Shown: in pieces, positions 1,646 through 60,683 of the stretch
Numbering within the stretch: position 1 is the first letter of the stretch
How the letters are laid out: each line of letters opens with the position of its first letter
Source of the DNA: Alphaproteobacteria bacterium
GTDB lineage: Bacteria > Pseudomonadota > Alphaproteobacteria > Bin95
Assembly: GCA_963665325.3 (NCBI GenBank)
Contig: OZ224045.1
Location: 800,001 to 864,000, forward strand
Reading direction: 5' to 3'
DNA: 64,000 nucleotides
Notes under the pieces: model-generated
The model's input: the letters and a program-made list of their open reading frames with translations, nothing else
What the model was told of the DNA's origin: nothing
Database searches by the model: none
Position numbers and translations under genes: made by a program

Positions 1646-1672
1646 GACGTCGGGTTTCGCCGTTCAAGGCCG

Positions 1673-2838: not shown

Positions 2839-2858
2839 AGAGGGGGGAGCGGAAGGCG

Positions 2859-4427: not shown

Positions 4428-4565
4428 GATGAATCTCGCCAGCCCGACCGGGCCCGGGTATCGGGCTGTTCTGTTCAGCGGACGCCCCGACAGAGCGGGA
4501 CACGTCAGCGGTCGCGGAGCGGATGGTCGTTCGAATCGACCGGGAGAGTTAACGGAAGCTGCAGC

Positions 4566-5408
4566 CTATCCGTCCCGGACGGAACCGCCGCCGTCGGCGT
4601 CCGGGTTCGAAATCACTCCGTTCCGTCTCGCTTCCTCCATGCGCCAACGAGAGCGGACCATGGGGTTGGAACGAGGGTAGAACTTCCAGCGCAGATGATC
4701 GCTCCGCTTTCTTATCGAGCGGACGAACCTATCGGGGAAGACATGCGGTTTGGCGAAGTCGGGCACATGGCGTCCATCCCCGATATGCCGAACGGCCGGT
4801 TCCGCGAGATAGGCCACCCGGTAGCCGAGTTCCAGATAGCATCGCGCCACCCGGGATTCCCTGGCCCAGGCCCGGAAATCCGAATAGCGTCCGACGATCC
4901 TGTAGTCCCGCATGCGCCGCAACCCCGGGTTGAAGGACAGGCCCGCAAACGCCCGGGCCACAGCAGGATCGGCAACGTGATATGCGACGCCGGAGTGTGT
5001 GGTGAGCTGTGGTCCGATGTAACCGGGGGCGAATTCGGAGGCAATTCTGAGCCCGACCATCGAGTAACGGTCGGATTCCTTCAGGACGGCAAAGGAGGGC
5101 TCGATGAATCCGTCGGAGAAGAATTCCCAGTCGTCCTCGCAATGGAAGACCCATTCGGTCTCGACACGGGAATAGAGCCGGTCGATGCTTCGGATGAGCC
5201 CGATCGGCTGTTCGTTGACGAGCACCTCGAATTTCAGTCCGCTGCCCGAGAAGCGGCGGATCACGGCGTGAACGGCCGGATCACCGCTATCCTCGGTGAC
5301 CACAAGCTTCGCGACCGGACCCTCCAGGCGCGGCAATAGGGAGCCGAGCGTCCGCTCCAGAAGGTCGAAGCGCCCGCAGCTCGTCAAAGCGACGGTGTAG
5401 GGCTCCAT
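4566..5408 (-). CDS. Glycosyltransferase family 2-like protein
   Basis: TSCGRFDLLERTL, VVTEDS, WVFHCEDDWEF, FAGLSFNPGLRR, VRHIG. Confidence 0.8.
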   Translation of the reverse strand: MEPYTVALTSCGRFDLLERTLGSLLPRLEGPVAKLVVTEDSGDPAVHAVIRRFSGSGLKFEVLVNEQPIGLIRSIDRLYSRVETEWVFHCEDDWEFFSDGFIEPSFAVLKESDRYSMVGLRIASEFAPGYIGPQLTTHSGVAYHVADPAVARAFAGLSFNPGLRRMRDYRIVGRYSDFRAWARESRVARCYLELGYRVAYLAEPAVRHIGDGRHVPDFAKPHVFPDRFVRSIRKRSDHLRWKFYPRSNPMVRSRWRMEEARRNGVISNPDADGGGSVRDG

Positions 5409-5759
5409 CCACACTCCCGGCAACCGGCGACGGGCCCGCGGTCGCCACAGCGCCGTCTCCTGTGCGAAAACAAACGAGCCGCCCGGCCCGTGGGATCTGG
5501 AGCCGTATCGCTCCGAATGTGGTACCAGAGGGCCCTATTGCCGCGGCAAGCAGCGTGGCCGATGCTAGAGTTGAACGGTTGCAAATTCAATTGGCACTCT
5601 TCCGTAATCGATCCCCAGTTGCTGGTCCGCGTCGGAAAGGTTGTTCCGCGCCGTCCCGTTGCCGCCCGGCCCAAGCAAGCACGTCCTCCGGGCTGACGGC
5701 CATCCGTTGCGGCACCAGGGCCGCATCGGCCGGCGATCCGGCCGCCGCATGACACGGCC

Positions 5760-7043
5760 TCATTCCCGCCTTCGATTGGTTCGTCCAGCCAGAACATCCG
5801 CTATCAGCGTTTCATAGCCGTCAATCGAGCGTTCGACCGAGAACCGCGCCGCGTTGATGCGGAGCGCGGCCTTGTTCGCCGGCTCGTCGAGCGCGCGCCG
5901 CATGACGCGGGCCAGCGCCTCCGCGTCGCCGACCGGGGCAAGCAGGGCCGGGTCCCCCAGGACTTCCGCGGGACCGCCCGGGCAGTCGGTCGAGACTGCC
6001 GGGCAGCCGCAAGCCAGCGCCTCCACCAGCACATTGCCGAGCCCCTCGTGCCGCGAGGAGAGCACGAACAGCGCCGCGCGGGCCATGAAGGCAAACGGGT
6101 TCTTCACCCAGCCCGGCAGGGATACGCAATCGTCAAGGCCGAAGCTAGCTATGCGGGCTTCGAGTGTGGAGCGCAACGGACCGTCGCCCAGAATGACCAG
6201 CCGGTAGGGCCGATTTGCGCGGAAATGCCGGAAGGCGTCGATCAGCGTCGAAAAGTCTTTCTCCCACACCAGCCGCCCGACACCGAGAATAACGGGCGGT
6301 CCGTCATCCGAAAACCAAGGATGCTCCGGCTCAAGCACTGCCAATTCTCCTATATCTGGAGCGAAGGCGGGATTGTATATCATTGTTATCTTATCGGCCT
6401 GCACACCGACCACTGCGGCAAAGTTATCCGCCACCCCACGGGATATCGCGACTACCCTGGACGCTGCCGAAAACACACAATGATCCGTTTCCCATTTTTC
6501 AACAATACTGCGAGCAATCGGGATTATCTCCGGGCAACCGTGTGTCATTCCAGCCGCAAAGAATCCTGCCTTATTCGCCGCCAGGAGATTGGTAAAAGCG
6601 ACATCGGGCTTCCGTTCCTCAAAATACCGGCCGAGGCGAAGCGCCCGGATGAAAGCTGCCCGCCTCTGGCGCCTGGCAAGGTCCAGGAGCGGCCAGCGAT
6701 GCTTTCTTACAAGACGGTATAAAAGGCAGGGCAGCCGGACGAGCGGCAAACGACGCATAAACCAGTGCGCGCTATCGGAAAAGCTGAGCTCACGATAGCG
6801 TTTCTTTTGCTTCCGAAACAGGTTAGCCGCCTGCCGTCTTGTCCGGCTCCACCTATCGGGACGCCGGGACAACACAAAGACCGATGCCCGCTCCGATATG
6901 TCGCCCGAGTAATCGTTCGTCGGTTGGAATAGCACCAGATCGACAGAGTGTCCTCGTTGGCAAAGCCCGTTGACACTGCGGATAACCGACCTCTCGGCCC
7001 CTCCCCCTCTCAATTCTGCAATAACCCAGCAGATATGCGCCAT
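5760..7043 (-). CDS. Glycosyltransferase family 4 (GT-B)
   Basis: GGGAERS at the N-terminus, GVGRL..EKDF, EGLGNVLVEALACG; the ATG at 7043 is 8 nt after the FkbM stop. Confidence 0.9.
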   Translation of the reverse strand: MAHICWVIAELRGGGAERSVIRSVNGLCQRGHSVDLVLFQPTNDYSGDISERASVFVLSRRPDRWSRTRRQAANLFRKQKKRYRELSFSDSAHWFMRRLPLVRLPCLLYRLVRKHRWPLLDLARRQRRAAFIRALRLGRYFEERKPDVAFTNLLAANKAGFFAAGMTHGCPEIIPIARSIVEKWETDHCVFSAASRVVAISRGVADNFAAVVGVQADKITMIYNPAFAPDIGELAVLEPEHPWFSDDGPPVILGVGRLVWEKDFSTLIDAFRHFRANRPYRLVILGDGPLRSTLEARIASFGLDDCVSLPGWVKNPFAFMARAALFVLSSRHEGLGNVLVEALACGCPAVSTDCPGGPAEVLGDPALLAPVGDAEALARVMRRALDEPANKAALRINAARFSVERSIDGYETLIADVLAGRTNRRRE

Positions 7044-7050
7044 GGTGGCC

Positions 7051-7839
7051 TTACTCCAGCCTTTGGAAGATCGTATTGCGATAGCTTGGCGACGCCTTCG
7101 GCTCAGCCGTGAAACCCAAATCGGACATAAGTCGGATGATCTCCGCCTGGCGCTCGTGGCTGCCTTCAAGCTCGACGATCATGGACCGGACGGATGGCGC
7201 GGAGAATGTCTTCGTCCCCCCCTCCAAAATGCCCAGCTCCAGTCCGTCCACATCGATTTTTACATGCGTCGGCAATGGCGGTGAAAATTGCTGCACGAAA
7301 TCATCCACCGAAAAACCGATTGCGCCTTGGCGGAATTTAGTGGCAATGGGGCGCTCAAGCTGGTCCTTCTCCGTGTTGAAGCCGTGCATTGCAGTTCCGA
7401 CGCCAGTATCCGCCTGGTTGAGCCTCCCGAGTTTTGTGTTTGAGTCGAAGGCAATCTGATACGCGACGATTCGACTGTCTATCCCGGCACGCTCTATGGT
7501 CTCGTTCAGCAACGCATAAGACGCGGCTTGAGGCTCGAACGCCAACACCTGTATATTGCGCTGAAGGGCGGCATACAAGCTATAAGCCCCGACATTCGCG
7601 CCAATATCCCATAGCATTGTCGTACGGTTGACGGAAATGTTGTCCAGCCATCCTCTCGTGTCCGCTTCGAAGTCGCCACGAAGCCGAAATGTAGGGGAGC
7701 CGGGCTTATAAAGTGCAAGTATGAGCTTGCGAAGCGGTACTAGCGTTTTCCTGAAAGTTCGTAACTTCTTCTCTGGACCAAGGGGAGCCGTTATGAACTT
7801 AATGAATAAAATGATGATGGTACTCAAAAAGCTGGTCAT
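7051..7839 (-). CDS. FkbM family methyltransferase
   Basis: WDIGANVG, VLAFEP, HVKIDVDGLELGILEG; ATGA overlap with the upstream ATP-grasp gene at 7836-7839; visibly AT-richer than its flanks. Confidence 0.9.
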   Translation of the reverse strand: MTSFLSTIIILFIKFITAPLGPEKKLRTFRKTLVPLRKLILALYKPGSPTFRLRGDFEADTRGWLDNISVNRTTMLWDIGANVGAYSLYAALQRNIQVLAFEPQAASYALLNETIERAGIDSRIVAYQIAFDSNTKLGRLNQADTGVGTAMHGFNTEKDQLERPIATKFRQGAIGFSVDDFVQQFSPPLPTHVKIDVDGLELGILEGGTKTFSAPSVRSMIVELEGSHERQAEIIRLMSDLGFTAEPKASPSYRNTIFQRLE

Positions 7840-8771
7840 TTTGATAATTTTTCCAGGATGAATGGCGCCGGCCAGCTCCACGCTTCGGCGCGGGCCTGCG
7901 CATCGAGGTGGTAGCTGGGGTCGAAAAACTTTGCGAGTTCTATGTTGGCGTCGGGCGGAATCAGCAAGTCATCCATGCCTCGCGGGCAGGATATTAACTC
8001 GCCGGTCCTTATACCCGCTTCGCAGACATATAGGTTTACCAGAACGAGTGGAAACGGCAAGGCGAGAAGCGACGCAATCCTCAAAATCTCCGTCAATCGT
8101 CGGGACACTTTATCGTCTTTCGGCCCGGTCGGGACTCCAAAGGTGATCGGTAGTTGGTTCCACTCAAGGTCGTAGAAGTTCTGCGTGAGCGTCCCGAACC
8201 GATCCGAGTCCACCCGGACCATCTTCGGGACGCCATGGAAACAGAACAACTTGCAATCCTTCGGCACGGGCACGCCGTCTTCGGAAAGGAATTCCTCGAC
8301 GATGATCTTCGGGCGGAGAAGGCGGTAATTGCCTTCGCTTGTGCCTCCATAGTGGTCCTTCTCAAGCCATTTGCGGAGGAAGTCGCGGCCGACGGCCTCG
8401 TCCGGGTCGGTGTGGAAGAGAATCGGGCCGCTCATATGCGTCGGTTTCATCACGCAGGATGCGCGGTCCAGGACAAACGCTCTTATCTCGTCGGGGCTCC
8501 TAAGCACCCGGTAGGTCTCCGGCGCATAACCCGGCCCGACCGTGTTGTCGATATAGAGCTTTGCCAACTCCTTGTCTGTGATGAACTGGTATAACGGGTC
8601 CAGCAGTGAGCGGTCCGTCTTGATCCGGTAAATCAGGTCGGTCAGCCGCCCCGCACCTTCGGGGTCTGGCTGCCGGCCTTGCCTGCGCACGAACCGCCGC
8701 CGGCAGAACTCCCGGTCCCCCCAAGCATTGCGCGGCAGCCAGCGCCGCGGGATCAGGCAAAGAGGGTTCAT
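7836..8771 (-). CDS. TupA-like ATP-grasp protein (polysaccharide amidoligase), possibly degenerate
   Basis: ITDKELAKLYI, CVMKPTHMSG, YRLLRPKIIVEEFL, KDCKLFCFHG, VDSDRF, FYDLEWN. Confidence 0.8.
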   Translation of the reverse strand: MNPLCLIPRRWLPRNAWGDREFCRRRFVRRQGRQPDPEGAGRLTDLIYRIKTDRSLLDPLYQFITDKELAKLYIDNTVGPGYAPETYRVLRSPDEIRAFVLDRASCVMKPTHMSGPILFHTDPDEAVGRDFLRKWLEKDHYGGTSEGNYRLLRPKIIVEEFLSEDGVPVPKDCKLFCFHGVPKMVRVDSDRFGTLTQNFYDLEWNQLPITFGVPTGPKDDKVSRRLTEILRIASLLALPFPLVLVNLYVCEAGIRTGELISCPRGMDDLLIPPDANIELAKFFDPSYHLDAQARAEAWSWPAPFILEKLSK

Positions 8772-8899
8772 TGTCCGGGGTGCCCGCTCATGTGCGGCCG
8801 ACAAGGCAACGGGCAAGCGTCGTAATTTGAGCCACGGGAATGCTCCAGCCGGTACCGACCGGCACAGTGTCCGGAAGATAGCTGCGGGCGGCGGTTCTC

Positions 8900-9005
8900 G
8901 CATCCGCCAAGGCCGCGCCAGACCCGCCAGCTCCGCCATCATCCAGCCCGTCTTGCGCTCGATCCCCGAAAGAAGCCCGTCCGGAAACACACCCCCGCCG
9001 CCCTG
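8900..9005 (-). mobile_element. IS701-family transposase remnant
   Basis: Minus-strand DGLLSGIERKTGWMMAELAGLARPWRM matches the conserved N-terminal IS701 transposase motif; the rest of the transposase is absent. Confidence 0.7.
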
Positions 9006-9176
9006 ATTTGGCCTGCATGTTTGATTCGTTCTCAACGCGGGTTATTCGCCCGTATCGCCTATCTCGTTCCAAGCCGCAACAAAAGATTGCCGTATCTCTG
9101 AACCCGTGGTTCGCAGACGGCCGAGGCGGTAAGATCAGCCGCGAAACGGATCACGAACTCATGCGGCGCGGTTATC

Positions 9177-10403
9177 ATGGCCCACATCACGATGCTCATC
9201 CAGAAGCTCAAGGGCGGTGGGGCGGAACGGAGCATATTCAGAACCGCCGGCGGGCTGGTGGAACGGGGGCACGACGTGGATATCGTGCTCTTCTCGCCGA
9301 CTTTCGTTTACCCCGGGGAATTGCCCCGGACGGCGCGGTTGATCGTGCTGTGCGGCCGCTTCGGCTGGATACGGCGCACCCGAAGCGATGTCCCGCAAGA
9401 AACGCTCTGGCGGCCTTGGCTGGCCTCGCCTTTCCGCCTGGCGCGCTTCGCGGCCGGCCTGTTTCATGAATTCGGAGCCTCCGCCCGGGTCCTGATGCGT
9501 CCAGCTTCGCTGGGCCATGCGCTGCGCCTTGCCCGCTATTTCGAGCGCGAACGGCCGGACATCGTCTTCGCCAACCTGGCGTCGGCGGAATATGCGGCAT
9601 TCTTCGCCGCGCGCCTTGTGTCTTCTCCCCCGCCGATCATCCCGATCCTGCGCGGCGCCGATGATCCGGGCGCAAAATCGACCAGACGCCGCCGGTTGCT
9701 GTTCCCGATGGCCGCCCGTCTCGTGGCGGTGTCCCGCGGCGTGTCAGAGAACATCGCCGCCATTGTCGATGTGTCGACGGAAGTGGGAATCGTGACGATT
9801 TACAACCCGGCGTTTGCACCGGAGATTACGCGACACGCGGAGGCCGCGCCGGACCATCCGTGGTTTCGTGACGGCGAACCGCCCGTCGTGCTGGGCGTCG
9901 GGCGCCTCACGCCGCAAAAGGACTTCCCGACACTGATCGAGGCGTTCCGCCGCGTGGTCGTCAAACATCCCTGCCGGCTGCTTATCCTGGGCGAGGGTTT
10001 CGGTCGCGCGGAACTGGAAAGCCGGATCCGAGCGTTGGGTCTTGAGGACCGAGTGTCGCTGCCGGGATGGGCCGATAACCCTTGGGCTTTCATGGCCCGG
10101 GCCGCGCTATTCGTGGTGTCGTCACGGTACGAAGGCCTGAGCAATGTGCTGGTCGAAGCGTTGACCTGCGGCTGCCCCGCCGTCTCGACGGATTGTGCCG
10201 GTTCGTCGGAAATTCTGGAGGATCCCGATTTGCTCGCGCCGATGGGCGACCCGGAGAGGCTGGCGAAAGCGATGCTGCGGGCGCTCGCCCGCCCGGCTGA
10301 CAGGTCAACCTTGCGCGGCCGCGCCGCCCGGTTCTCCCTGGAAAGGACTGTGGACGGATACGACGAACTGATTGCCGCGGTTCTGGCCCAGGCGAAGTCG
10401 TAG
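9177..10403 (+). CDS. Glycosyltransferase family 4 (paralog of 5760-7043)
   Basis: GGGAERS, GVGRLTPQKDF, EGLSNVLVEALTCG. Confidence 0.9.
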   Translation: MAHITMLIQKLKGGGAERSIFRTAGGLVERGHDVDIVLFSPTFVYPGELPRTARLIVLCGRFGWIRRTRSDVPQETLWRPWLASPFRLARFAAGLFHEFGASARVLMRPASLGHALRLARYFERERPDIVFANLASAEYAAFFAARLVSSPPPIIPILRGADDPGAKSTRRRRLLFPMAARLVAVSRGVSENIAAIVDVSTEVGIVTIYNPAFAPEITRHAEAAPDHPWFRDGEPPVVLGVGRLTPQKDFPTLIEAFRRVVVKHPCRLLILGEGFGRAELESRIRALGLEDRVSLPGWADNPWAFMARAALFVVSSRYEGLSNVLVEALTCGCPAVSTDCAGSSEILEDPDLLAPMGDPERLAKAMLRALARPADRSTLRGRAARFSLERTVDGYDELIAAVLAQAKS

Positions 10404-10438
10404 ACGCCGGGCGCCGGTTCAGCGGCCTCTCCGCAATT

Positions 10439-11563
10439 TCAGAGCAGTTCCCGATAGACTGCAAGCGTCTTCGCACACATCAGGTCCTGCGTGAAATGAG
10501 CGAGGACATGCGTACGCGCCCTGGCTGCGAGAGTGGGGCCGGCTGCGAAGAGCGCCTTTCGGATGCCCTCGGCGAGCGCGGCCGGATCGCCCGGCGGGAC
10601 CAGCCATCCGGTTTCGGCATGACGGACAATTTCGCGCGCGGCGCCAAGATCGCTGGAGACGGCCGGCAGACCCATTGCGCCCGCCTCCGCCAGCACTCGC
10701 CCGAACGACTCCGGACGGATGGAAGCGGAGACCACAACATCGCTGGCTGCGTAGGCGGCCGCCATGTTGTCGGTATGATCCGCAAAGCGCGCCGGCAGTC
10801 CTTCGGCCAGCGACTCCAGTTCGCGCCGGTATGCCTCTCTGCTCCGGTCGGAACCGATGAACACCGCGACAAGGTTCATGTCCGCAAGCCCGCGCATCGC
10901 GTCGATCAACACCCCATGGCCCTTGAGGCGGGTCAGCCTGCCGGGCAGGAGCGCTACAAGCGCTCCTTCCGGGATTCCCCAGGCCGTGCGCAGCTTCACC
11001 TTTTCCTGGGCGCGTACGGCGGAAGGGTCGAATGCCGCCGCGTCTATGCCCTGATGCACCACCCGTACGCGATCGCGCGGGCAGCCGTAGAGCTCCTCCA
11101 CATGCTCCGCGATAAAGTCGGAGACGGCGATCACGCGGTCACCGGAAGCCATGACGCGGTTGTAGGCGCGTTTGGCGGCACTACCGGCGCCGTAGGCGCC
11201 GTGGACAGTCGTGACGAATGGCACCCTTGCGCGCCGCGCCGCCGCGCGGGCGCTCCACGCCGGCGCGCGCGAGTGGGCATGAACGAGGTCTACGCCTTCT
11301 CGAGCGATAAGGGTTCCAAGCCGGCCCGAATTTCGCCACAGCCCGATGGGATTCTTGGTGTCGACAGGCAGGCGGACATGGTCAGAACCGAGGCCCGCAG
11401 CCATCCGCCCGCCCGACGAAGCCACGAGCACCCGCACACCAGCGCCGCGCAAGGCAGCGGCAACGTCCAGCGTGCCAAGTTCGGCACCGCCCGCTTCGAG
11501 CGCCGGAAGCACCTGAAGCACGGTTTTGCCGTGCAATTCCGTTCCGGCCCGGGACGATTCCAT
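10439..11563 (-). CDS. Glycosyltransferase family 4 (LPS core type)
   Basis: LQVLPALEAGGAE, HAHSRAPAWS, PGRLTRLKGH, PESFGRVLAEA. Confidence 0.9.
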   Translation of the reverse strand: MESSRAGTELHGKTVLQVLPALEAGGAELGTLDVAAALRGAGVRVLVASSGGRMAAGLGSDHVRLPVDTKNPIGLWRNSGRLGTLIAREGVDLVHAHSRAPAWSARAAARRARVPFVTTVHGAYGAGSAAKRAYNRVMASGDRVIAVSDFIAEHVEELYGCPRDRVRVVHQGIDAAAFDPSAVRAQEKVKLRTAWGIPEGALVALLPGRLTRLKGHGVLIDAMRGLADMNLVAVFIGSDRSREAYRRELESLAEGLPARFADHTDNMAAAYAASDVVVSASIRPESFGRVLAEAGAMGLPAVSSDLGAAREIVRHAETGWLVPPGDPAALAEGIRKALFAAGPTLAARARTHVLAHFTQDLMCAKTLAVYRELL

Positions 11564-11674
11564 AGCAACTGTCACAATCGGAAATTTGGGCGGCCATGTA
11601 AAGGGCGGGCATTTCCAGCGATCCTCGACTGTCCTCTGGAGCGACGGACCACGCGTGCCATCGCTGAAAGCCGC

Positions 11675-12298
11675 TCAGGAAATGCCCTGCGACGCTTCCA
11701 CCACGCACGAAACCCGTCGGTCGAACTTGCGCAGTTGGCGGGCGATCAGCCGGTCCTTGACCAAAGGATGGAGCGACGCCAGCCACCGGTACCTGCGGTT
11801 TTCCCATCCCTCAATGATCATCAACTTCCAGTCGCCACCGTCCAAACGCACGGCCACGACGTTATAGGGAGCCGTGTCCATGGTTAACAGGCGTTCCTTC
11901 CGCAGCCACCGCTTCAACCCGTCGATCGCCCGGACCAGAGAAGGCGTCAGGCCGTGTTCCCGAATAACCTGGGAGAGATTGCGGGAAATGCGGCCGTCAT
12001 GGTCCCGGCACAGCCGCATGACGATGCCCCGGCCCAGATCGGTATCGACGACGCCCTCGATCGCCGGGATGCGGTCGAACACCGAGTCCGCCCCGCGCGC
12101 CCTCAGTCGCCGGTTGTCTTCAAGATCCCATCTTTGCTGGCGAAGACAGTCCGCATCGTCACGGACCGCCACCTTGACGCACAGATCCGGATCATCCGGG
12201 TGGACGTAGCAATGCCGCTTGGTGCCCCTCGCGAACGGTTCGCGCCCGGAGAGGGCAAGGGGGCGTTCGGGGGATGTCGGCGGTCCGGATATCTTCAA
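11675..12298 (-). CDS. YrbL-family (PhoP regulatory network) kinase-like protein
   Basis: FARGTKRHCYVHP...CVKV, GVVDTDLGRG, DTAPYNVV, LMIIEG. Confidence 0.75.
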   Translation of the reverse strand: MKISGPPTSPERPLALSGREPFARGTKRHCYVHPDDPDLCVKVAVRDDADCLRQQRWDLEDNRRLRARGADSVFDRIPAIEGVVDTDLGRGIVMRLCRDHDGRISRNLSQVIREHGLTPSLVRAIDGLKRWLRKERLLTMDTAPYNVVAVRLDGGDWKLMIIEGWENRRYRWLASLHPLVKDRLIARQLRKFDRRVSCVVEASQGIS

Positions 12299-12577
12299 TG
12301 CCTGATCTTCACTTAATGGACGTGCCTTCGGTCAATGCGCCGAAGCGGTCTATACGAAATTGTGGATATCTTGTAATCGATGCAGCCGGAGTGACCGAAG
12401 GTAATCGCTTTCAGCTTAGCGATCTGCTGCGCGGATCCTGTAAAGGAGGAAGTTATCGTTCCACGCGGCGCGTTCAGGTTTGCTGCGCATGGTCATTGCC
12501 CAACTCCCGCCCGGCGATGCTGAGGACGAGCCTGCGCATAGGGGCGAGGCGTGCTTTTCGTCCTTGATGTCGCTCCT

Positions 12578-13294
12578 TCAGGGTCGATAGGGCACTTCCA
12601 CTCTGCGAACCTGCCCTGTCATGCGCCGCAAGCAGATCCTGGCCTTCAAAACGGCTCGCACCGCGGGGCCGGTCGTGCGTGGGAAGAACTCTCCTTCATT
12701 GTCCGAGCCGAAATGATCGGCGTGGCGCGCTATTCCCGGGACGACATGGGACGGCTTCAGGCGGCGCGCGATGGGAGAACCGGGCATATGGAACAGCATT
12801 GAGTCTGCCGTCATGCCCACCGAGGACGCCATGTTGAGGATGATTTCAGCGCCTGCGCGGTTGAGCATATAGGCGTAAGCGCCTGCCGAGGCCCACGAGA
12901 TCGGGCGAATTGCGCTGCCGTACGGCGTCTCGCCGATTGGCCGACCGAGCAGCAGAGCCTTGCGGCGGCCGTTCAACTTTATCGCATTCGTTCCGGCAGG
13001 CCACCACTCGACCGATGCCAGCAGCCTGCGAACGTCGGGCGCAAGCTCGGCATCGTCTTCGAGGATGAGAGACGCCGGCGCATCGGTTCGCAGGAACTCG
13101 CTGATGGCAACAAGATGGCTTTCCCTGCAACCGGACTGCGGCAGGGACAAGCCGTCATGGATCGATCCTACGATGCTTCCGGCGTCGATACCCGGAATTC
13201 GCATTGCTTCGATGCGGAGACGGTCCAATTGGCCCATTATCGCCGTCCAGCGGTCGGGGCGCCGGTCGAGATTGATGACGAACACGGGCAGCAT
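12578..13294 (-). CDS. Glycosyltransferase family 25 (LPS/LOS biosynthesis)
   Basis: VFVINLDRRPDR, GCRESH, LILEDDA, GAYAYML. Confidence 0.9.
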   Translation of the reverse strand: MLPVFVINLDRRPDRWTAIMGQLDRLRIEAMRIPGIDAGSIVGSIHDGLSLPQSGCRESHLVAISEFLRTDAPASLILEDDAELAPDVRRLLASVEWWPAGTNAIKLNGRRKALLLGRPIGETPYGSAIRPISWASAGAYAYMLNRAGAEIILNMASSVGMTADSMLFHMPGSPIARRLKPSHVVPGIARHADHFGSDNEGEFFPRTTGPAVRAVLKARICLRRMTGQVRRVEVPYRP

Positions 13295-13532
13295 GGCGGA
13301 CCCCGCAAGGCCCGTCGCTGGTGCCGGGCCATTGCGACTGCCAGCGCGTAAGCATGGCTATCTGTTCGCCGGGCTCGGGTCGTGCTTCCTCGCCAGGTTC
13401 GGCTGTTCCATTCAGCGGGCACCACGACAGAGCGGGACGCGCCAGTAGTCGCACGAGCGAGAATCCGGCCATATGGGCGCGAGAGTCAAGCCGTAGTATG
13501 GCGCGGTGCGCTCCGTGAAAGGGTCGCACCAC

Positions 13533-13729
13533 ATGGCGAAGGACACTGACGACAAGCCGGTGGCGCGGCTGAAGCCGTCCAATTGCCAGCCGAGCGAGGC
13601 GGAACTCGAAGAGGATGTGCGGATCGACGCGACGCCCGGATCACTGCTCCGGACGTCATGGCGGTCGTTCGGGTAGAGACCCTCAAGCCCCGCTAAACGG
13701 GCTGTTCGTCACTCGCCCATATTATTCCC
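13533..13729 (+). mobile_element. Probable IS1595-family end remnant (small passenger ORF plus terminal IR-like sequence)
   Basis: 47-aa ORF 13533-13676 (MAKDTDDKPVARLKPSNCQPSEAELEEDVRIDATP...) followed by CATATTATTCCC (13718-13729). Both resemble IS1595-type ends as I recall them; no transposase is present. Confidence 0.35.
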
Positions 13730-14354
13730 GTTCGAAGCGACTTTGCCGCTTTCGGTCCGGGATTCGATTCCCGGTCAATTTCGAAACGCGCCGGTCGAAC
13801 TTGTGCAGCTGACGGGCGACCAGGCGATCCCTTGTGAAAGGGAAGAGCCACGCCAGCCACCGGTACGTCCGGTTCTCCCAGCCTTCGATGATCATCAACT
13901 GCCAGTCGCCGTCGCCCGAACGCACGGCCACGACATTATAGGGGGCCGTGTCCCTGGTCAGCAGGCGCTCTTCCCGCAGCCACCGCTTCAGCGCCTCGAC
14001 CGCCCGGATCAGGGACGGCGTCAGGCCGTGTTCCAGGATGACCTGGGCAAGATTGCGCGATATGCGGCGGTCGTGGTCGCGGCAGAGCCGCATGACTATG
14101 CCCTTGCCCAGATCGGTATCGACGACCCCCTCGATCGCCGGGATGCGGTCGAACACCGAGTCCGCCGCGTGCGCTCTCAGCCGCCTGTAGCCGTCGAGAT
14201 CTCGTCTCTGTTCGCGAAGGGCGCGCTGATCTTCGGGATTGGCCACCACCTTGACGCAAAGATCGGGATCGTCGGGATGGACGTAACAATGCCGCCTTTT
14301 GCCTTTGGCAAACGGTTCGCATCCGGCCAGCGCGAGCGAGCGCATCTCAAGCAT
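13722..14354 (-). CDS. YrbL-family kinase-like protein (paralog of 11675-12298)
   Basis: Shares long identical stretches with the first copy, e.g. ADSVFDRIPAIEGVVDTDLG, DTAPYNVVAVR, LMIIEGWENR. Confidence 0.75.
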   Translation of the reverse strand: MLEMRSLALAGCEPFAKGKRRHCYVHPDDPDLCVKVVANPEDQRALREQRRDLDGYRRLRAHAADSVFDRIPAIEGVVDTDLGKGIVMRLCRDHDRRISRNLAQVILEHGLTPSLIRAVEALKRWLREERLLTRDTAPYNVVAVRSGDGDWQLMIIEGWENRTYRWLAWLFPFTRDRLVARQLHKFDRRVSKLTGNRIPDRKRQSRFERE

Positions 14355-14399
14355 CGGCGGATTCGAACCCCATGGCACGGGGCTGCCTATCGGTGCGCG

Positions 14400-15410
14400 C
14401 GCAGCATGCGGCGCGCAATGACCGTGCGGTGGACCTCGCTCGGCCTTCAGAGACGCGCATGAGCCGCACTTTCCGCGCCATCAGCTGCAGCGGCAATTCC
14501 CTGGTGACACCCATTGCGCCGAACGCCTGCTGGGCATTGTCCACGATCTCCGTCGCCATCTCGGTGGCATACACCATTATATCGAGGCTTCGGTGCGCAC
14601 GTCCTCGTCCCGATCCTGTTTTACGGCCGCGTCCATCACCATCAGCGAGCAAACATGGACCTTGGTCGCCCCGTCGGCAATCCACCACTGGATCGCCTGC
14701 CGGTCGGCGAGGCGCTCGCCGAAGGTCACGCGCTGGCTCGCATGTTCGCAGAGCATCTTGAGCGCGCAGCGCGCCATGCCCACGCATCAGGCGCCCATCT
14801 GCAGCCGGCGCACGGTCAGCCGAAGCTGCATCGGGCCGAAGCCGTTGCCCACCTGGCCCAGAACCTGGCGCTCATGCTCGCGGCAGTTCTCGAACACGAC
14901 CTCATAGGTGCGCGCGCCGCCCAGCATGGGAATTTCGCGCTCCACGATGAAGCCGGGCGTGTTCTTTTCGACGATGAAGGCGGTGATGCCGCCGCGCGCG
15001 CTTCTCCGGGTCGGTCAGCGCCATGACGATGGTGAAATCGGCGTAAGGCACGCGGCTGATCCAGATCTTGCGCCCGTCGATGACCCAGTGGTCGCCGTCC
15101 TTGACCGCGCGGGTGGTCATGCCGGCCGGGTCGCCGCCGGCGTCCGGCTCGGAGATGGCAATGGCGGAATGCGTCTCGCCGCTTGCATAGGGTTCCATGT
15201 AGAGCCGCTTCTGGCGCTCGTCGGCGACCGCGAGCAGCATGTGGAAGTTGGGCGAGTCGGGCGGAAAGACGAAGGGCGTGATCGTGCGGCCGAGCTGCTC
15301 GTTGACACCGACCAGCGCCACGGCCGGCAGGTTCATGCCGCCGACCTCCTCCGGCGCGTCGAGCGCCCAGAGGCCGAGTTCCCGGCACTTGTCGGAGCTG
15401 GTCCAGTCAC
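14400..15410 (-). pseudogene. Acyl-CoA dehydrogenase pseudogene
   Basis: AIAISEPDAGGD, WVIDGRKIWIS, RVTFGERLADRQAIQW and AQQAFGAMG are spread over different frames, with a frameshift near 15000, in-frame stops near 14790 and 14578, and no N-terminus. Confidence 0.9.
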
Positions 15411-15560
15411 AGACAGACCGCTCGTCCCAGTTCAACACCCTCGCCCGGATCGCTCATCTCTTCCAGAGCTATCACATATCGACATCAGAGCGATGGATCG
15501 CGACTGCGGCTGCCATCAGGTGCGTGGAAAAATGAGAGTTTGGGACGACAGCTTCTCCAG

Positions 15561-16067
15561 CTAGAACAGTTCGGGCTGACGCGGCGGCCCGCCGCGCCCG
15601 TCTTTCGTCCCATCCCCTTTTTGCGTCTGCCGCCCCGGCGTCCGGGGTTCCTTCGGCTCGTCCGGCATGAAGGCGGCGGCGATCACCTCCGCGCGCGCCT
15701 CCCCGAACACGGTGCAGAGCCCGTCGAGGGCCTCCGCACGGCGGCCCTCCCGAACCATCGCCTGCAGCCGCTCCCGAAGCAGGTCCCGCGCGAGCGCGCC
15801 GAAACGGGCAGACGCTTCGTCTCGCGCGCCTTCGGCCAAGTCTCGCGCAACGCGGGAAATCCGGCGCTGTTGCTGTTCATCCAGGACCAGCGGCGGGGCT
15901 GCAATCCTTTCCGGCGCCGACAGGTCGACGGTCAGGACGCATTTGGCCCACCACCGCGATACCGTCTCGCCGGCCGCCTTCGCCCATCCGTTGATCGCTG
16001 CCCACTGCGCGTCCGTGTAGGAAACCGAGTGCCCCGTGCCCGGCTTCCGTTTTCTCGGTTTCTTCAT
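15561..16067 (-). CDS. Hypothetical protein with N-terminal ribbon-helix-helix-like segment
   Basis: HSVSYTDAQWAAINGWAKAAGETVSRW; ATGA overlap with the upstream ORF at 16064-16067. Confidence 0.6.
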   Translation of the reverse strand: MKKPRKRKPGTGHSVSYTDAQWAAINGWAKAAGETVSRWWAKCVLTVDLSAPERIAAPPLVLDEQQQRRISRVARDLAEGARDEASARFGALARDLLRERLQAMVREGRRAEALDGLCTVFGEARAEVIAAAFMPDEPKEPRTPGRQTQKGDGTKDGRGGPPRQPELF

Positions 16068-16396
16068 GAGCCCTTGCCGCCGTCCCACAGATGGACACAA
16101 CGGAGGACTTCGTGCTGCAGACCGGTCGCCTCCCGGCCGCCCGCAGCCGAAACCGTGAAATGCCCGAACAGGGCCAGGCGTTGCAGGTCCGCGTCGAGGC
16201 GTTGCTGTTCGTCGGTCGAGAGCGCAAGGGCATGCCCGGCCGGCTGCGGAACAGGAGCCGCCGCCTCCTGGGCCGCCCGCTCGCAGCAGAGCCACCCGAA
16301 CCGGGAGATCTTCATCTTGTGCTTCCTCGCCCGCTTGCCACCCGCCTCCCAGATCTCGGGCGGGAGGTAGAGGCTGCGAGGCCTAGCCCGGTCCAA
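16064..16396 (-). CDS. Hypothetical protein, ribbon-helix-helix-like
   Basis: TTG start after AAGGGAG; RSLYLPPEIWEAGGKRARKHKMKISRF. Confidence 0.55.
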   Translation of the reverse strand: MDRARPRSLYLPPEIWEAGGKRARKHKMKISRFGWLCCERAAQEAAAPVPQPAGHALALSTDEQQRLDADLQRLALFGHFTVSAAGGREATGLQHEVLRCVHLWDGGKGS

Positions 16397-16409
16397 CCTG
16401 CCGCTCCCT

Positions 16410-16772
16410 TCAGTCGAACGATGTCTGGCCGTCGAGCCACAGGTCCGCATCGGCGCCCAGCTTCCGCCATGTCCGCCCGCCATCGAGATCATCGAGGCGC
16501 AGCTTCTCCGCCTGCTCGAGAATGCGCAGCATGCGCATCATGCTGCGCAGCACCTGCGGCGGTATTCCCGTTGCCGTCGCATCGGTCGCCGTCTGCCAGA
16601 AACGGTGGGTGTGGACGAGATAATCCCCATGCCGCAGTCCTTCGGCTCCGGCGGCTTCGTGAATGCGCGCCCAGTCAGCATCGGTCACCAGCACGCTGCG
16701 CCGTTTCTTCGGTTGCTCCCCGGTCCCTGTCGCCACCGCCCTGCTCCCTGTCCGTCTCATCCCTTTGCCCAT
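16410..16772 (-). CDS. Hypothetical protein, ribbon-helix-helix/MobC-like
   Basis: KKRRSVLVTDADWARIHEAAGAEGLRHGDYL; exact start uncertain. Confidence 0.55.
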   Translation of the reverse strand: MGKGMRRTGSRAVATGTGEQPKKRRSVLVTDADWARIHEAAGAEGLRHGDYLVHTHRFWQTATDATATGIPPQVLRSMMRMLRILEQAEKLRLDDLDGGRTWRKLGADADLWLDGQTSFD

Positions 16773-17029
16773 GCCACATAAGAAAGCAAATATCATGTAT
16801 CAAAGGCAGAATTAACATACACCCGCCACTGTCACATGGGCAAGCTGGCATGATAACCGTATAATCGCCACATAATCAAACTGTATCTGTTCATACACCG
16901 CGACTACCTGATTCCACACCGTCCTGTCCTTTCACAGATGGCAGCCAGAACTAAATTACACACCTGTGTGTGACTTTTCGCTCTCAATGCTTTCTTCATT
17001 ATACGGCGATCCATCCTTCCGGGAACCAC

Positions 17030-17334
17030 TTGACATGACTCATAACATACTGTATTTCAAGCAAAGAAACAGGAAATTGCCTCAATCCATGTCAGCTCTG
17101 TGAGCATTAATCTCGCTATAGATTTCTGCTACACGCGATACGCGCGAAACAGGGACCCGCCTGAGGCCGACGGCGGCGCAGACGGAACGGTATCGAGAGG
17201 AAAGACCGTGCCGAAGACACAGCGGCCAACGAGCCGGGAAAAGGCCCCGGGCCTCCGCCCGAAACCATGGCGTCATGCCGGAACGGACTATCGGATATGA
17301 GCCAAGCGCATGCGGATCATGACAAATCATGACA
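17030..17334 (+). repeat. Dispersed composite non-coding element, partial copy C
   Basis: CGCGATACGCGCGAAACAGGGACCCGCC (17134-17161) is 28/28 identical to the reverse complement of 60358-60385; CATGACAAAT-CATGACA at 17318-17334; TTGACA at 17030. Confidence 0.75.
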
Positions 17335-48317: not shown

Positions 48318-48473
48318 GGCGGCGCGAACTCCGAACGGCCTTGCCGCCGGCGCGGTTCCGGCGCAGGCGGGAGCATGCACGATAGGAAGCCCGTCGCGCG
48401 CCGTCCGTGCCGGCGGCTATTCCGCCGGGTCCGCAGCTTGGTTCCTGAAATAAGATTATTTTCATACAAAAGT

Positions 48474-48905
48474 GTTGACTCCGGGACCGCCTTGCCTATA
48501 TAGGCCGTGACGAAGCGGCATCTGCGGGCCGCATCCGTTCGCGCCGGCGCGAAAATAAAGTCCCTGAGAAACTGACGGGAGACGTGCGCCCTGCGTCCGG
48601 GCTCGCGCGCGCAGGCGCAATCAGGCGCGCAAACCGCGCCGGCGCCAACGCGCCCGCCTGCGCACGCCCGCGATACGCGCGAAAAAGGGTTCCGCCGCCG
48701 GGAGGCGGGGAACGGGAAGGAGGAACGATGCAGGAGAGACCGGGCATGGCAAGGCAGGCGGCGCCCGGACCATGACAAAACATGACATTTCATGACGACC
48801 CCGGGTTCCCTGGCGGCAGGAACGGGAGAGGAATGAAGGATCGATGCAGGCAAGACAAAATAGGAATATCAATGGAACATGACCAAACATGACATTTCAT
48901 GACAT
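48474..48905 (+). repeat. Dispersed composite non-coding element, copy A
   Basis: GTTGAC...CTATAT promoter-like sequence (48474-48501); core 48562-48696 homologous to the reverse complement of 60358-60479; CATGAC arrays with 10-bp period at 48771-48796 and 48878-48905. Confidence 0.85.
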
Positions 48906-48977
48906 CCTCGGCGTCCGCTCCGGGAGGCGGTGGAACGCGGTCATGGCCTCATCGGCTCCGGGCCATGAACGGCGGCG

Positions 48978-51074
48978 TCAGTCCTTCCTGTCGCCGAGAA
49001 GGCCCTTCAGGCCGCGGCCGATATCCTTCACGGCGCCCTTCAGCTTGTCCCGCAATTGCCGAACCGCCTGTTCGGGCGATGCAGGGCCCGGTTGCGCCGC
49101 CGCGCCGGGTTTCGGCGGGGCGGTCGCGATCTCCAGGCACTCATTGCCCTCGCCGCCGAGCTCGCCCAGCCCCACGACTGCGGCCGGCGGGAACAGCGCG
49201 ATCCCGACGAGGCCGCCGAGCTTCTTCAGTGCCGCGCCGGCTTCGGGCCGGAATTTCGGGTTGGCGAAGGCGCCCCGGATACGGACCGGCACCGAGATAT
49301 TGAGGGTCGCGGATTTCGCGCGGGGCTCGACGGTGAGGTCGAGTGTCTCCGTCGCGAGGTTTGCCGTCCCCTTCGCGGCGACGGTCGAATATTCGGTGTC
49401 GATTAGAACCGCCCGGCTCGCCGCCCGCCCGTTCTCGATGCCGATGGAGGCGACGGCGCAGTTGACGACCGTCCATTGCTTCCGGCCTGAGAACAGCGTG
49501 CCGAGGACGGCGCTGGCGCCGCCGACCGCCGCATCGAACGCCTCCGTCTTCAGGCGGCCGCTGCCGCCCACGAGCCGGATGTCGCCGTCGAGGCCGGCCA
49601 TGAGCGCGGCGACGGACCCGCCGGAGCCCGCAAGATCGACGCTGGCCCTGGCCTTCCCTTCGAACAGGTCCGTCACGCCGGCCTCCTCCAGCAATCGGCC
49701 GAGGTCGAGTTCCGGAGCCCGGGCCGCAAGGCGGAGGCGCGGCGCCGCGCGCCGCGTATCGAGGTGGAGTTCGCCGTCCACCCGGCTTCCCGCCACAGTC
49801 GCCGAGAACGGTCTTACGGAAAGCGCGCCGTCTTCCAGGCTTATGCGGGCCTGCACCGCGCCGACCGGGACCGGATATCCGGCCAGCCTTTCGACGCTCA
49901 GCGTCAGGTCGAGATCGGCGGCCTTGAGGCCCTCCAGCGGAAGCGGGTCGTCGGGAAACACCCGGTCCTGCCTCACGTTCTTCGGCTTTGCGTCCTTGCC
50001 CGCGGCGGTCGGGCGATCGCTCGCGGCGGCCTTCGACCGCAGCCCGGCAACGTCGATCCCGGTCGACGCCAGCGTGCCGCTCACGCGCGGCCGCGGCCCC
50101 GACAGGACGAGGTCGATCCGGCCGGAAAGGTCGCTGGCGCCGAGCGCGCCCTTCAGATCCTCGAACCGGAACCTGTCGGCGCCGCCCTCGATGCGGGCGT
50201 CGAAGGCGACCGGCCCGAGCTCCGGCAGCCCCGGCCCTGCAAGCGGTGCGAGCGAGGACAGGTCCGCGCCGCGAACCGCCGCCCGGAGGTCCAGGCCCCC
50301 GGCTTTGCCGGGTTCGGCCACCGCGCCGGACAGCCGCGCCTCGAAGCCGAACGCCTTCGCATCGAGCACGAGTTCCAGCGGCCGTCCCGAAGCGATGGCC
50401 GCCAGGGAGCCGACAGTGCCCGAGGCCGAGAACGGGGCCCCGTTCCAGGCGCCGAAGGCATCGATTTCCAGCGGGGCGCCGAAGGACCCCGCCCGCGCCG
50501 ACACCCGCTCGAGTTCGAAGCGCATCTCCTCGCCGCTCCGTGCATCCCTGTAGATCAGGCGCCCCCGGCGGATTTCCACATGATTGAAGATCGGGACCGA
50601 TGGCGGCCCGCCGCCCGTCTCGTCCTTCCGTCCAGCCTCCTCTCCGGAGCGGGCGGGCGCGCCGGACCGGTCGTCCGGAGGCGGCCCGTTCCGCCAGTTG
50701 GACAGGCCGTCGGCATTGGTTTCGAGCAGGATGTCGGGTTCGACCAGGATGAGCCGGGTCACGCGGATATCGCCCGCAAGCAGCGGCAGCAATTCGACCT
50801 CCGCCTCGGCTCGTTCGAGCGCGATCATGGCCGGGCGCGAGCCCCAGTCGGCATTGGCGACGGCGACCTGCTCAACGGTGACGGCGGGCGTGAGCGAGAT
50901 CGACAGGTCGATATCGCCGCCGATGGCGAGGTCGCGGCCGGTCGCCTCGCGAAATTCCGCGGCGATCTCCTCGCGGTAGCTGTTGACGTCGATGGAATAG
51001 AGAACCGCTGCCGCGGCCGCGACGAGGACTGCGACCGCCAGCGCGGCCCATTTCAGCAGGCTGGCGACGCGCAT
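48978..51074 (-). CDS. AsmA family protein
   Basis: N-terminal TM, ATGRDLAIGGDI, ANADWG, VFPDDPLP, VNCAVA, VPVRIRGAFANP. Confidence 0.88.
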   Translation of the reverse strand: MRVASLLKWAALAVAVLVAAAAAVLYSIDVNSYREEIAAEFREATGRDLAIGGDIDLSISLTPAVTVEQVAVANADWGSRPAMIALERAEAEVELLPLLAGDIRVTRLILVEPDILLETNADGLSNWRNGPPPDDRSGAPARSGEEAGRKDETGGGPPSVPIFNHVEIRRGRLIYRDARSGEEMRFELERVSARAGSFGAPLEIDAFGAWNGAPFSASGTVGSLAAIASGRPLELVLDAKAFGFEARLSGAVAEPGKAGGLDLRAAVRGADLSSLAPLAGPGLPELGPVAFDARIEGGADRFRFEDLKGALGASDLSGRIDLVLSGPRPRVSGTLASTGIDVAGLRSKAAASDRPTAAGKDAKPKNVRQDRVFPDDPLPLEGLKAADLDLTLSVERLAGYPVPVGAVQARISLEDGALSVRPFSATVAGSRVDGELHLDTRRAAPRLRLAARAPELDLGRLLEEAGVTDLFEGKARASVDLAGSGGSVAALMAGLDGDIRLVGGSGRLKTEAFDAAVGGASAVLGTLFSGRKQWTVVNCAVASIGIENGRAASRAVLIDTEYSTVAAKGTANLATETLDLTVEPRAKSATLNISVPVRIRGAFANPKFRPEAGAALKKLGGLVGIALFPPAAVVGLGELGGEGNECLEIATAPPKPGAAAQPGPASPEQAVRQLRDKLKGAVKDIGRGLKGLLGDRKD

Positions 51075-59899: not shown

Positions 59900-60580
59900 T
59901 GTCATGAAGTGTCATGTTTTGTCATGAGGCCCGCCGGAAATGTCATGCTTTGTCATGCGGTCCGCCGCGCAAGCGGGGGAGGCGGAAATGAGGTGCGGAA
60001 AGGACGGGCCGGCTCCATGGAAAACCCCTCTCCCGATTGCGGGAGAGGATGGGAGAGGGCCTCACGGCGTGACGGGTCTTTGCCGGGCTTCGCCCGCCGC
60101 CGCACTGAACGCGGTGGACGATACGAATAGCGGCGTTGGCACGGCCGCGCTGAACGCGGCGGACGATGCGAATGGCGGCGTTGGCGCCGCCGCGCTTCCG
60201 CTGGCGCGGAAGCGGACCCCCACCCGACCTCCCCCGCGAGCGGGGGAGGCGGAAAGAGGGGCAGACGGCTCGCTGGCGGACAGCGTCCGGGACGACGACA
60301 GGGGCGTATTGCTTCATCGGTCCTCCTCCTTGTCCTTCCCGCCGCCGTCCTGCCTGCGGCGGGTCCCTGTTTCGCGCGTATCGCGCGCGGGCGGGGGCGC
60401 CCGTTGGCGCCGGCGCGGTTCGCGCACCTGATTGCGCGCGCGAGGCGACGGACGCACCTCTCCCGTGCGTTTCTCAGGGGGTTTTCGAAAATGACGCCGC
60501 CCGGCCGCACGACGCCGGAGAAGCGGCTCCGGATACCGCTTCTTCCGGCTTCATACTAGCATATTTTCCCTGATGTCAAG
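59900..60580 (-). repeat. Dispersed composite non-coding element, copy B (inverted), carrying REP-like hairpins
   Basis: TGTCATG arrays at 59900-59926 and 59941-59957; core 60358-60479; minus-strand TTGACA at 60574-60579. Confidence 0.85.
60101..60190. repeat. 45-bp imperfect tandem duplication
   Basis: CGCACTGAACGCGGTGGACGATACGAATAGCGGCGTTGGCACGGC followed directly by CGCGCTGAACGCGGCGGACGATGCGAATGGCGGCGTTGGCGCCGC. Confidence 0.85.
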
Positions 60581-60683
60581 CAATTTTGCGAACAAAAAGT
60601 AAAAACACCAGAAATTTTTCAACTCGCAAAGGCGCTCAATCGACGACTCACACCAGCGGTCGTCGATCGGAACCTGTGCCGAC

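Follow-up and report, generated by a model that had tools for sequence, protein, structure and literature searches.

What is a sequence that stands three times within 64 kb of a bacterial chromosome, encodes no transposase and ends each time in a short array of CATGAC repeats? The question arises from the window, as we call the whole 64,000-nt stretch of alphaproteobacterial DNA analysed here (G000:C1:800001-864000, from a genome, G000, of five contigs, 5.58 Mb and 67% G+C), in which an earlier note, made from the letters alone, had marked a composite element at 48474-48905, 59900-60580 and, partially, 17030-17334. The three stretches are members of one family of about 65 small dispersed cassettes, the complete members of which carry a gene for a protein resembling the small subunit of phage terminases (TerS). 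The cassettes might be satellite-like packaging units whose arrays serve as pac-like sites, a reading that we favour while giving it slightly less than an even chance; the complete ones may represent a novel type of minimal phage parasite or of device for gene transfer. The descriptive part of this account is solid, and the mechanism is what we infer from it.

A family of dispersed cassettes

The family was searched in the whole genome by iterative nhmmer seeded with 48474-48740, which returned 74 matches, 64 of them full length, on four of the five contigs (none on the 196-kb contig), in agreement with the genome-wide family that had been suspected from the three copies. The core 24-mer was found at 65 sites when up to two mismatches were allowed. 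The module order described for 48474-48905 and 59900-60580 was confirmed, their sequences belonging to one family, whereas the 17030-17334 copy is a family member only from 17131 on (the "promoter" seen at 17030 is DNA of an integrated island and is not homologous to the other two). The terminal 28-mer is, as reported, identical in the 59900 and 17030 copies (28/28), and each of them agrees with the 48474 copy at 25 of the 28 positions. The element is wider than first stated: among the 64 full-length copies that were aligned, 61 supplied upstream flanks, and in these the conservation begins about 45 nt upstream of the -35 element and stops beyond, while at the other end it fades within about 25 nt past the last CATGAC, often through C.C.GGAGTGGGCCCC.

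From 5' to 3', a cassette consists of an AT-rich box, a promoter-like site (TTGAC-N15-TGnTAnnAT), a GC-rich leader of about 230 nt, a variable slot and the phased CATGAC repeats. A typical cassette spans 300-500 bp (overall range 0.3-1.5 kb) and has at most one open reading frame (ORF). The earlier statements that no transposase is encoded and that the element belongs to no recognised family were borne out, the latter insofar as the whole window gave no Rfam match at the gathering score (only noise over 48400-48960, with E >5 and up to 10). A literature search, with supplementary files outside it, turned up neither the array or core sequences nor any account of such small terminases that are multicopy or stand alone. 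In four metagenome contig sets the core is present in massive copy number, and the flanks of a close relative are present in a set labelled sponge metagenome.

CATGACA is enriched in the window, with 19 occurrences where 3.8 +/- 1.8 would be expected (a count not attained in any of 100 shuffles), and 11 of the 19 sites fall within the three arrays. A regular expression for two ATGAC units at 10 bp (ATGAC-N5-ATGAC) found 90 clusters in the whole genome, 61 of them on the same strand as a core and not more than 900 nt downstream of it. Of the clusters away from cores, about ten are copies of a single unrelated repeat, and a few more are chance matches in coding sequence. The copies of this repeat, about ten and identical, contain ATGACGCTCCATGAC (e.g., C1:1487055, C1:2165789, C3:931780, C4:29387), and the repeat is probably an insertion sequence (IS).

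A small-terminase-like gene in the complete cassettes

Five cassettes of G000, all outside the window, carry between leader and array an ORF of 326 aa with its stop codon in the array; in addition, there is one internally deleted remnant of the gene. Residues 11-80 of the protein match the Pfam family Terminase_2 (PF03592) above the cut-off (E 2.2e-12), and PHROG 51 (terminase small subunit) matches it at 3.9e-14. An AlphaFold (AF2) model built from 30 homologues is all-alpha and is confident only for the N-terminal domain (predicted local distance difference test, pLDDT, >90) and a few helices. The best PDB matches of the N-terminal domain found by Foldseek are the DNA-binding domain of the SF6 small terminase (4zc3, 2cmp; template-modelling (TM) score 0.85, root-mean-square deviation 1.5 Å, 41% identity); on the sequence and the predicted fold, the N-terminus is a small-terminase helix-turn-helix DNA-binding domain of the SPP1/SF6 type. 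Helices 69-106 follow this domain, and full-length SF6 TerS (3zqq) is the top match for the protein, yet with E 5e-3 and TM 0.15-0.35. No catalytic domain was found in the 326-aa protein by Pfam, NCBIfam or fold search; PADLOC returned nothing and NCBIfam only a sub-threshold chance match.

The five paralogues differ at a proportion of 0.11-0.20 of synonymous sites (pS), with non-synonymous to synonymous ratios (pN/pS) of 0.18-0.32, and each of them has therefore been maintained by selection. Many invariant residues are shared among the 30 homologues, including the final DHD, which is encoded by the array itself. The neighbours of the gene at the five loci are ordinary or unrelated, and no large terminase gene is adjacent. 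A gene linked to the element, of the kind that the earlier note had thought of, was thus found in part: full cassettes have a small-terminase gene and neither a transposase nor a recombinase. Many TerS fragments across the genomes cover only the N- or the C-terminal end, which fits internal deletion, and the window copies, as short gene-less members, look like non-autonomous derivatives of gene-bearing cassettes. In viral contigs there were four distant matches only (31-32% identity over the N-terminal domain).

Gene and arrays across the genus

The cassette was surveyed in 17 genomes of the genus including G000. Its parts were present in 37-171 copies in 13 of the 16 other genomes. TerS-like matches occurred together with 33-171 three-unit arrays in 13 of the 17 genomes, and three of the 17 had neither the gene, nor arrays, nor other parts (0-2 double units each). 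G009 has 45 cores, no TerS-like match and only nine three-unit arrays, and G012 has arrays and genes with only three matches to the core 24-mer, its leader being shorter and without the 30-mer described below. At least two exact array units were kept at 5 of the 13 loci attributed to G009 versus 32 of the 35 loci from four other genomes, a comparison that bears on the arrays alone, since all loci had been picked for an intact core. Of three loci taken from G009 itself, L152 and L153 carry point-mutated units and L151 has three exact ones. Because of the co-occurrence across the genus and the state of G009, the arrays can be said to track the TerS-like gene, while the leader persists without it. 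At L151 (G009:C1:3403500-3404500), what appears from the sequence to be a tRNA-like gene lies about 230 nt past the array (GGGGGTCCGTAGCTCAGTCGGTTAGAGCG..). Outside the genus only weak matches were found, in eight other genomes of the class.

Insertion sites and mobility

The 59900 copy lies at a gene for a thiamine diphosphate (ThDP) enzyme. A cassette occupies this site both in G000 and in its closest relative among those found, G011. The site is empty in G006 and G010, where the stop of the upstream gene lies 25 nt from the ribosome-binding region of the ThDP gene. In G011 (L122, L125; G011:C3:458646-463682) about 290 nt interrupt the match to the ThDP-enzyme gene, and the slot of the orthologous cassette has an extra insert of about 330 nt. 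When 38 cassettes of other genomes with usable flanks were mapped to G000, both flanks of 12 fell at one place, seven of these places being empty (gaps of -5 to 75 nt) and five filled; insertion polymorphism thus comprises seven sites empty in G000 and filled elsewhere and one filled in G000 and empty in two relatives. At the asmA site of the 48474 copy, three relatives (asmA-like gene at 48970-51074 compared with L110, L114 and L115) have another 3' neighbour, the orthologue of which lies on a different contig of G000 (C4:391.3-392.9 kb), so that an inter-replicon rearrangement has one of its breakpoints at this cassette. Of the three relatives, one retains just a fragment of an array at this position and another lacks even that.

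These comparisons did not uphold the claim that each copy stands at a junction of accessory and core DNA. Only the 48474 copy sits at a synteny break; both flanks of the 59900 copy are conserved, with the neighbouring genes adjacent in G006 and G010, and the accessory DNA next to the 17030 copy is there solely as the result of an island's integration into the element. The idea of a non-autonomous mobile element fits the filled and empty orthologous sites and the gene-bearing master copies.

The same observations might be explained by a conventional transposable element with derivatives like miniature inverted-repeat transposable elements (MITEs), moved in trans, in which the TerS-like helix-turn-helix protein would have an end-binding or regulatory role and the CATGAC array would be the end-recognition site. 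We give this a small chance. The copies are dispersed and intergenic (64 short against 5 gene-bearing), polymorphic between species, and associated with synteny breaks, and the fragmentary gene remnants are typical of decaying elements. However, no resemblance in inverted orientation was seen between the 5' end (TTTGTTC..GAAATAATTCC) and the 3' end (CATGAC array and GGAGTGGGCCCC). The 5' limit of the element is ragged (the 5' side of insertions often brings extra unrelated DNA or repeats), and no target-site duplication was seen at any of the eight sites at which filled and empty states were compared. In addition, the sole encoded protein is all-helical with no catalytic fold detected, and there are no near-identical pairs of copies that would mark recent transposition.

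Are the cassettes packaging units?

If the cassettes are packaging units, the TerS-like protein from the master copies would bind the 10-bp-phased CATGAC arrays in cis and in trans, and the arrays would act as pac-like sites. Upon infection by, or induction of, a pac-type phage, the large terminase of the phage would be recruited to the arrays, and the cassettes would be packaged together with neighbouring chromosome, with satellite-like hijacking, transduction and possibly phage interference as the outcome; the short cassettes would be non-autonomous derivatives that keep the sites in cis. We favour this because of the architecture of the cassettes, the identity of the TerS-like protein, the parallel with phage SPP1, the selection on the gene, its co-occurrence with the arrays, the decay of arrays in G009, the gene fragments, and the filled and empty sites. 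The parallel is with the pac region of SPP1, in which, according to passages of PMC4737164, direct repeats span promoters and the start of terS. The earlier note had listed a packaging landmark among its options, to which the small-terminase gene of the full cassettes adds support.

Several points weigh against this. The SF6 DNA-binding domain is described in passages of PMC4737164 as binding pac DNA weakly and without sequence specificity, and a repeat array by itself therefore does not establish that a binding site is present. The cassettes have no large terminase linked to them, and none is conserved in the genus, where Terminase_6N was found in just 3 of the 17 genomes. The TerL_ATPase and HK97 capsid families are absent from G000 (other TerL families were not searched), and no conserved resident head-tail cluster was found. 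The single Terminase_6N of G000 lies in a Mu-like prophage, the only prophage of this genome, which carries its own small terminase (a small ORF upstream of terL) and no CATGAC arrays. Residues 110-326 of the 326-aa protein are of low confidence in the model and have no TerS-like C-terminal fold. The paralogues are old, as their pS values indicate, and give no sign of current spread in G000, and the slot has other cargos, namely an acidic ORF of 187 aa and one gene of the isochorismatase family. The 187-aa ORF (P0001) is present in three to five copies of the second subfamily, defined below, and belongs to no Pfam, NCBIfam or PADLOC family. The conservation of the leader in G009, where the gene is missing, suggests that the leader has a role of its own. 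The packaging reading does not account for movement to new sites, with no inverted ends, target duplication or recombinase found. Transcription, binding of the arrays by the TerS-like protein, packaging and the origin of new copies are all steps that we infer.

The prophage (L150, C1:470000-489999) has a Mu-like head module with large terminase, portal, F-like protein, protease and major head protein, as well as an endolysin and two methyltransferases. A weak sub-threshold portal match was seen at C1:2167539 (23.6 bits against a cut-off of 39.1); the prophage has its own PHROG portal.

Taken furthest, the packaging reading would describe a chromosome-wide network of about 60-170 pac-like CATGAC arrays per genome, with several stand-alone small-terminase genes, in a sponge-associated alphaproteobacterial genus. 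Any pac-type phage, infecting or induced, would be forced to start headful packaging across the host genome, and a minimal integrase-less satellite would spread itself and host genes by transduction, maybe also serving as a decoy defence, with its leader a multicopy landing site for integrase islands. This whole picture is possible but, in our judgement, doubtful.

The leader as a predicted transcript and as an integration site

The leader is preceded by a promoter-like site with TTGA[CT] in place in 49 of the 64 copies; TAnnnT follows after a 15-nt spacer in 31 of the 64, and 30 of these 31 also have TG at -15/-14. In the 48474 copy the site is predicted from this consensus at 48475-48502 (+), with TTGACT at 48475-48480 and TATATA at 48497-48502. 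The promoter-like sequence of the earlier note thus stands as a conserved family consensus, and a promoter is predicted from this conservation, whereas a strict sigma-70 scan, which required a spacer of 16-18 nt, found none in either full window copy.

Directly downstream, the predicted transcript opens with a hairpin at 48512-48536 (+; GAAGCGGC / GCCGCAUC), which is present in the minimum-free-energy fold. Its helix covaries: in 81 copies (60 distinct) the score is 0.261 versus 0.186 +/- 0.012 in shuffles, none of 500 shuffles reaches it, and controls slid along the alignment give at most 0.177. One pair of the inner helix is GC in 40 copies and CG in 12, and another is AU in 21, GC in 15 and GU in 12; G-U outnumbers A-C by 44 to 12 at the variable pairs, as expected for RNA of the + strand. 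In the local folding of 139 copies, mean z is -2.13 for the 5' hairpin, -0.86 for the hairpin before the Shine-Dalgarno (SD) sequence and -0.10 for the middle of the leader, its best conserved part. Transcription of the leader probably starts at the promoter that each cassette brings with it, and the RNA would open with a stable hairpin. RNAalifold on hidden Markov model (HMM) and MAFFT alignments gave unstable, mostly invariant GC helices for the whole leader, and an all-pairs covariation screen was too noisy to use; both were set aside.

The conserved GC-rich core of the leader (48540-48689, +; nhmmer model positions 60-215) includes a near-invariant 30-mer (48616-48645), with at least 99 exact matches in other genomes, and a CGCGATACGCGCG palindrome (48669-48681). 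Since the 30-mer is invariant and the folding signal of the middle is nil (z -0.10), the middle seems to be kept for its sequence rather than for folding, and sequence recognition is its more likely role.

The 17030 copy is split by an island. Its attR half (17131-17334, +) begins with the 11-bp direct repeat ACACGCGATAC (17131-17141) and continues through the remainder of the leader into a short slot, after which comes an array of two units (17318-17333). The attL half, at C1:776955-777140, ends at ..CACACGCGATAC and is followed by the gene of a 375-aa P4-type integrase; attR resumes at ..CTACACGCGATAC followed by GCGCGAAACAGGG, the window reading from 17131 ACACGCGATAC followed by GCGCGAAACAGGG. 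The island between the halves measures 39,994 bp (C1:777141-817134), and its right-hand 17 kb fills positions 1-17130 of the window; the crossover site of its integration is the CGCGATACGCGCG palindrome of the leader. Positions 17030-17154 are 100% identical to C3:1325264-1325388, which is the end of an integrated island. This second island copy (C4:1-14297 and C3:1325284-1338693, with 99.99-100% identity over the assembled parts) likewise lies between two element halves, which belong to another cassette that has a TerS remnant. Because it is split over both contigs, the end of C3 probably meets the start of C4 in the actual genome, and about 12 kb of island would be missing from the assembly. 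The conserved middle of the leader is thus the attB of a P4-type integrase island, used twice, in two cassettes, and the "integration landmark" of the earlier note proved to be literally so. P4-type integrases use tRNA and other small-RNA genes as attB, and islands that target tRNA genes restore the 3' part of their target.

Alternatively, the leader RNA itself might be the product, i.e., the family might be a multicopy small RNA of about 220 nt made from some 65 promoters, with the arrays marking or ending the unit and the TerS-like gene as one of several cargos. The conserved promoter-like site directly before the covarying hairpin, the strand signal of the variable pairs, the persistence of the leader in G009 despite decaying arrays and no TerS-like gene, and the use of the leader as attB in the manner of tRNA and small-RNA genes all speak for it. 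But the leader as a whole folds no better than shuffles in the two full window copies (z -0.49 and -1.45), its most conserved part has no structural signal, no intrinsic terminator was found on the + strand of the two copies, and Rfam has no match. In addition, the cassettes of G012 lack the invariant 30-mer and yet have promoter, gene and arrays, and the arrays with their tie to the TerS-like gene are left unexplained. We consider a small-RNA family improbable, and of the "structured-RNA cassette" proposed earlier the 5' hairpin stands and the folded leader does not. On the minus strand, 48692-48708 (the hairpin after the leader, then AACCCTTTTT) scores terminator-like; the T run is weaker in most other copies.

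The upstream box and the orientation of the cassettes

Two types of box precede the promoter-like site, TTTGTTC..GAAATAATTCC in most copies and (A/G)TTC-N7-GTTC in a second subfamily, to which the 59900 copy belongs. In the 48474 copy the AT-rich box lies at 48432-48474 (+; consensus TTTGTTC..N..GAAATAATTCC) and is a candidate operator or UP element. All 11 exact occurrences of GAAATAATTCC in the genome are upstream of element cores. The second type resembles the alphaproteobacterial SOS box and could be read as a candidate LexA box. An external regulon for the box was considered and rejected, GAAATAATTCC being confined to cassettes and the looser and GTTC-N7-GTTC patterns elsewhere being coding or IS matches only.

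The box and the arrays could also be parts of a host regulatory device, a portable promoter and operator driving the downstream gene, with the arrays bound by a host response regulator (as PhoB-like direct repeats on the other strand). It is true that the neighbouring genes tend to point the same way as the cassette (in 47 of 63 copies for the upstream gene and in 44 of 65 for the downstream gene, by a crude GC-frame gene caller), that three units at the 10-nt period put TGA and ATG in all three reading frames (every slot ORF examined terminates inside the array), and that the TGTCAT direct repeats of the reverse strand resemble the Pho box consensus. Nevertheless, three genomes of the genus, which should share core regulators, have essentially no arrays, the period is 10 bp where Pho boxes have 11 bp, the gene ahead is convergent in 21 of 65 copies, and the box motif occurs only in cassettes, all of which makes such a host regulon very unlikely.

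Remaining parts of the window copies

In the 48474 copy, the leader is followed at 48689-48775 (+) by a terminal hairpin (48689-48713), a purine-rich SD (48715-48723) and, in the slot, a 15-codon ORF (ATG 48728, TGA 48773) whose stop lies inside the first repeat. The terminal hairpin is found in many copies but is weakly supported by its mean z, and the SD holds the position of that preceding the 326-aa gene in full cassettes. The first array (48771-48796, +) has three CATGAC units at 10-bp period (CATGACAAAACATGACATTTCATGAC). A duplicated 3' module (48797-48903, +) follows, with a second SD and ATG at about 48831-48850 and a second three-unit array at 48878-48903; a like tandem module also occurs at C1:270480-270930 and C4:737257-737699.

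On the minus strand, the 59900-60580 copy has its 5' parts at 60333-60620, i.e., the box of the second subfamily, TTGACA (60579-60574), TAGTAT (60558-60553), the 5' hairpin and the leader core (nhmmer match 60579-60333). Its slot (59958-60332) holds no credible gene and is filled by other repeats, and its arrays (59901-59957) consist of two units (59942-59957) and three units (59901-59926), followed by CCCCGCTGGAGTGGGCCCC. Among the slot repeats, a 45-bp tandem repeat (GGCGCCAACGCCGCCATTCGCATCGTCCGCCGCGTTCAGCGCGGC-like, at about 60130-60230, -) belongs to a family that also occurs in several other cassettes and at more than 30 other places in the genome, and a hairpin like those of repetitive extragenic palindromes (REP) lies at 60026-60049. 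Upstream of many cassettes (e.g., C3:1309617, C5:331915, L072, L073), the intergenic flanks are crowded with recurrent REP-like palindromes (..CCCCGGCTCGG.GGCCGGGGTGAC.. and ..CCCGTCATGCCCG..CGGGCATGACGG..). A lone upstream CATGAC was tried as a second binding site and dropped: 61 copies have seven in the interval 31-120 nt upstream, where about 2.2 would be expected, and several of the seven belong to unrelated REP hairpins.

Implications

If the arrays are packaging sites, the cassette would be the smallest phage satellite described, with one gene and its site. It would also be the first satellite with a large gene-less population, a packaging counterpart of MITEs, and would offer a concrete mechanism by which uncultured sponge symbionts exchange genes and rearrange their genomes at high rates. 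Should the arrays prove to be something else, there remain an undescribed promoter-leader cassette in 65 copies with conservation at the level of a genus, a new attB for P4-type integrases that exists in many copies, and a naturally occurring series of phased repeats for which there is one matching DNA-binding protein. For annotation, it follows that matches to "terminase small subunit" in these genomes are no marker of a prophage.

Comparison with known systems

The closest likeness is to G1P and pac of SPP1/SF6, with which the 326-aa protein shares the N-terminal DNA-binding domain (TM 0.85, 41% identity to 4zc3; Terminase_2) and the cassette shares the placing of promoter, terS and direct repeats in one short stretch (as described for SPP1 in passages of PMC4737164). 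Unlike in these phages, the gene is not followed by one for a large terminase and stands in the chromosome in several copies (five intact in G000 and up to about ten in relatives), and the 326-aa protein has a long acidic tail that is mostly disordered in the model. The repeats of the cassette lie at the 3' end of the gene and are units of 6-7 bp that recur strictly every 10 bp, and there are about 60-170 extra gene-less arrays per genome.

In the satellites known as Staphylococcus aureus pathogenicity islands (SaPI) and phage-inducible chromosomal islands (PICI), a stand-alone terS without terL, together with the satellite's own packaging site, redirects the packaging of the helper phage. The cassettes likewise have a stand-alone chromosomal terS-like gene without terL and with a putative packaging site, but they lack genes for integrase, replication, repressor, excision or capsid size, and they have no att sites of their own. 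They also measure about 1.5 kb instead of 5-15 kb and are accompanied by dozens of gene-less derivatives, and no helper phage was identified.

With MITEs and Correia-type repeats the cassettes have in common that they are short, dispersed, intergenic and polymorphic in presence, have a promoter-like site, and are apparently derived from a longer gene-bearing form; they differ in having neither inverted ends, nor target duplication, nor a transposase in the long form. As in gene transfer agents and in lateral or generalised transduction, chromosomal DNA would be packaged from chromosomal sites, whereas gene transfer agents differ by the resident head-tail cluster that we did not find conserved here (HK97 capsid and TerL_ATPase being absent from G000). 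Finally, the islands resemble those at the tRNA and transfer-messenger RNA (tmRNA) attB sites of P4-type integrases, in that a 40-kb island lies, twice, inside the conserved leader palindrome with an 11-bp direct repeat; the difference is that the target here is the leader of a multicopy cassette and not a tRNA gene.

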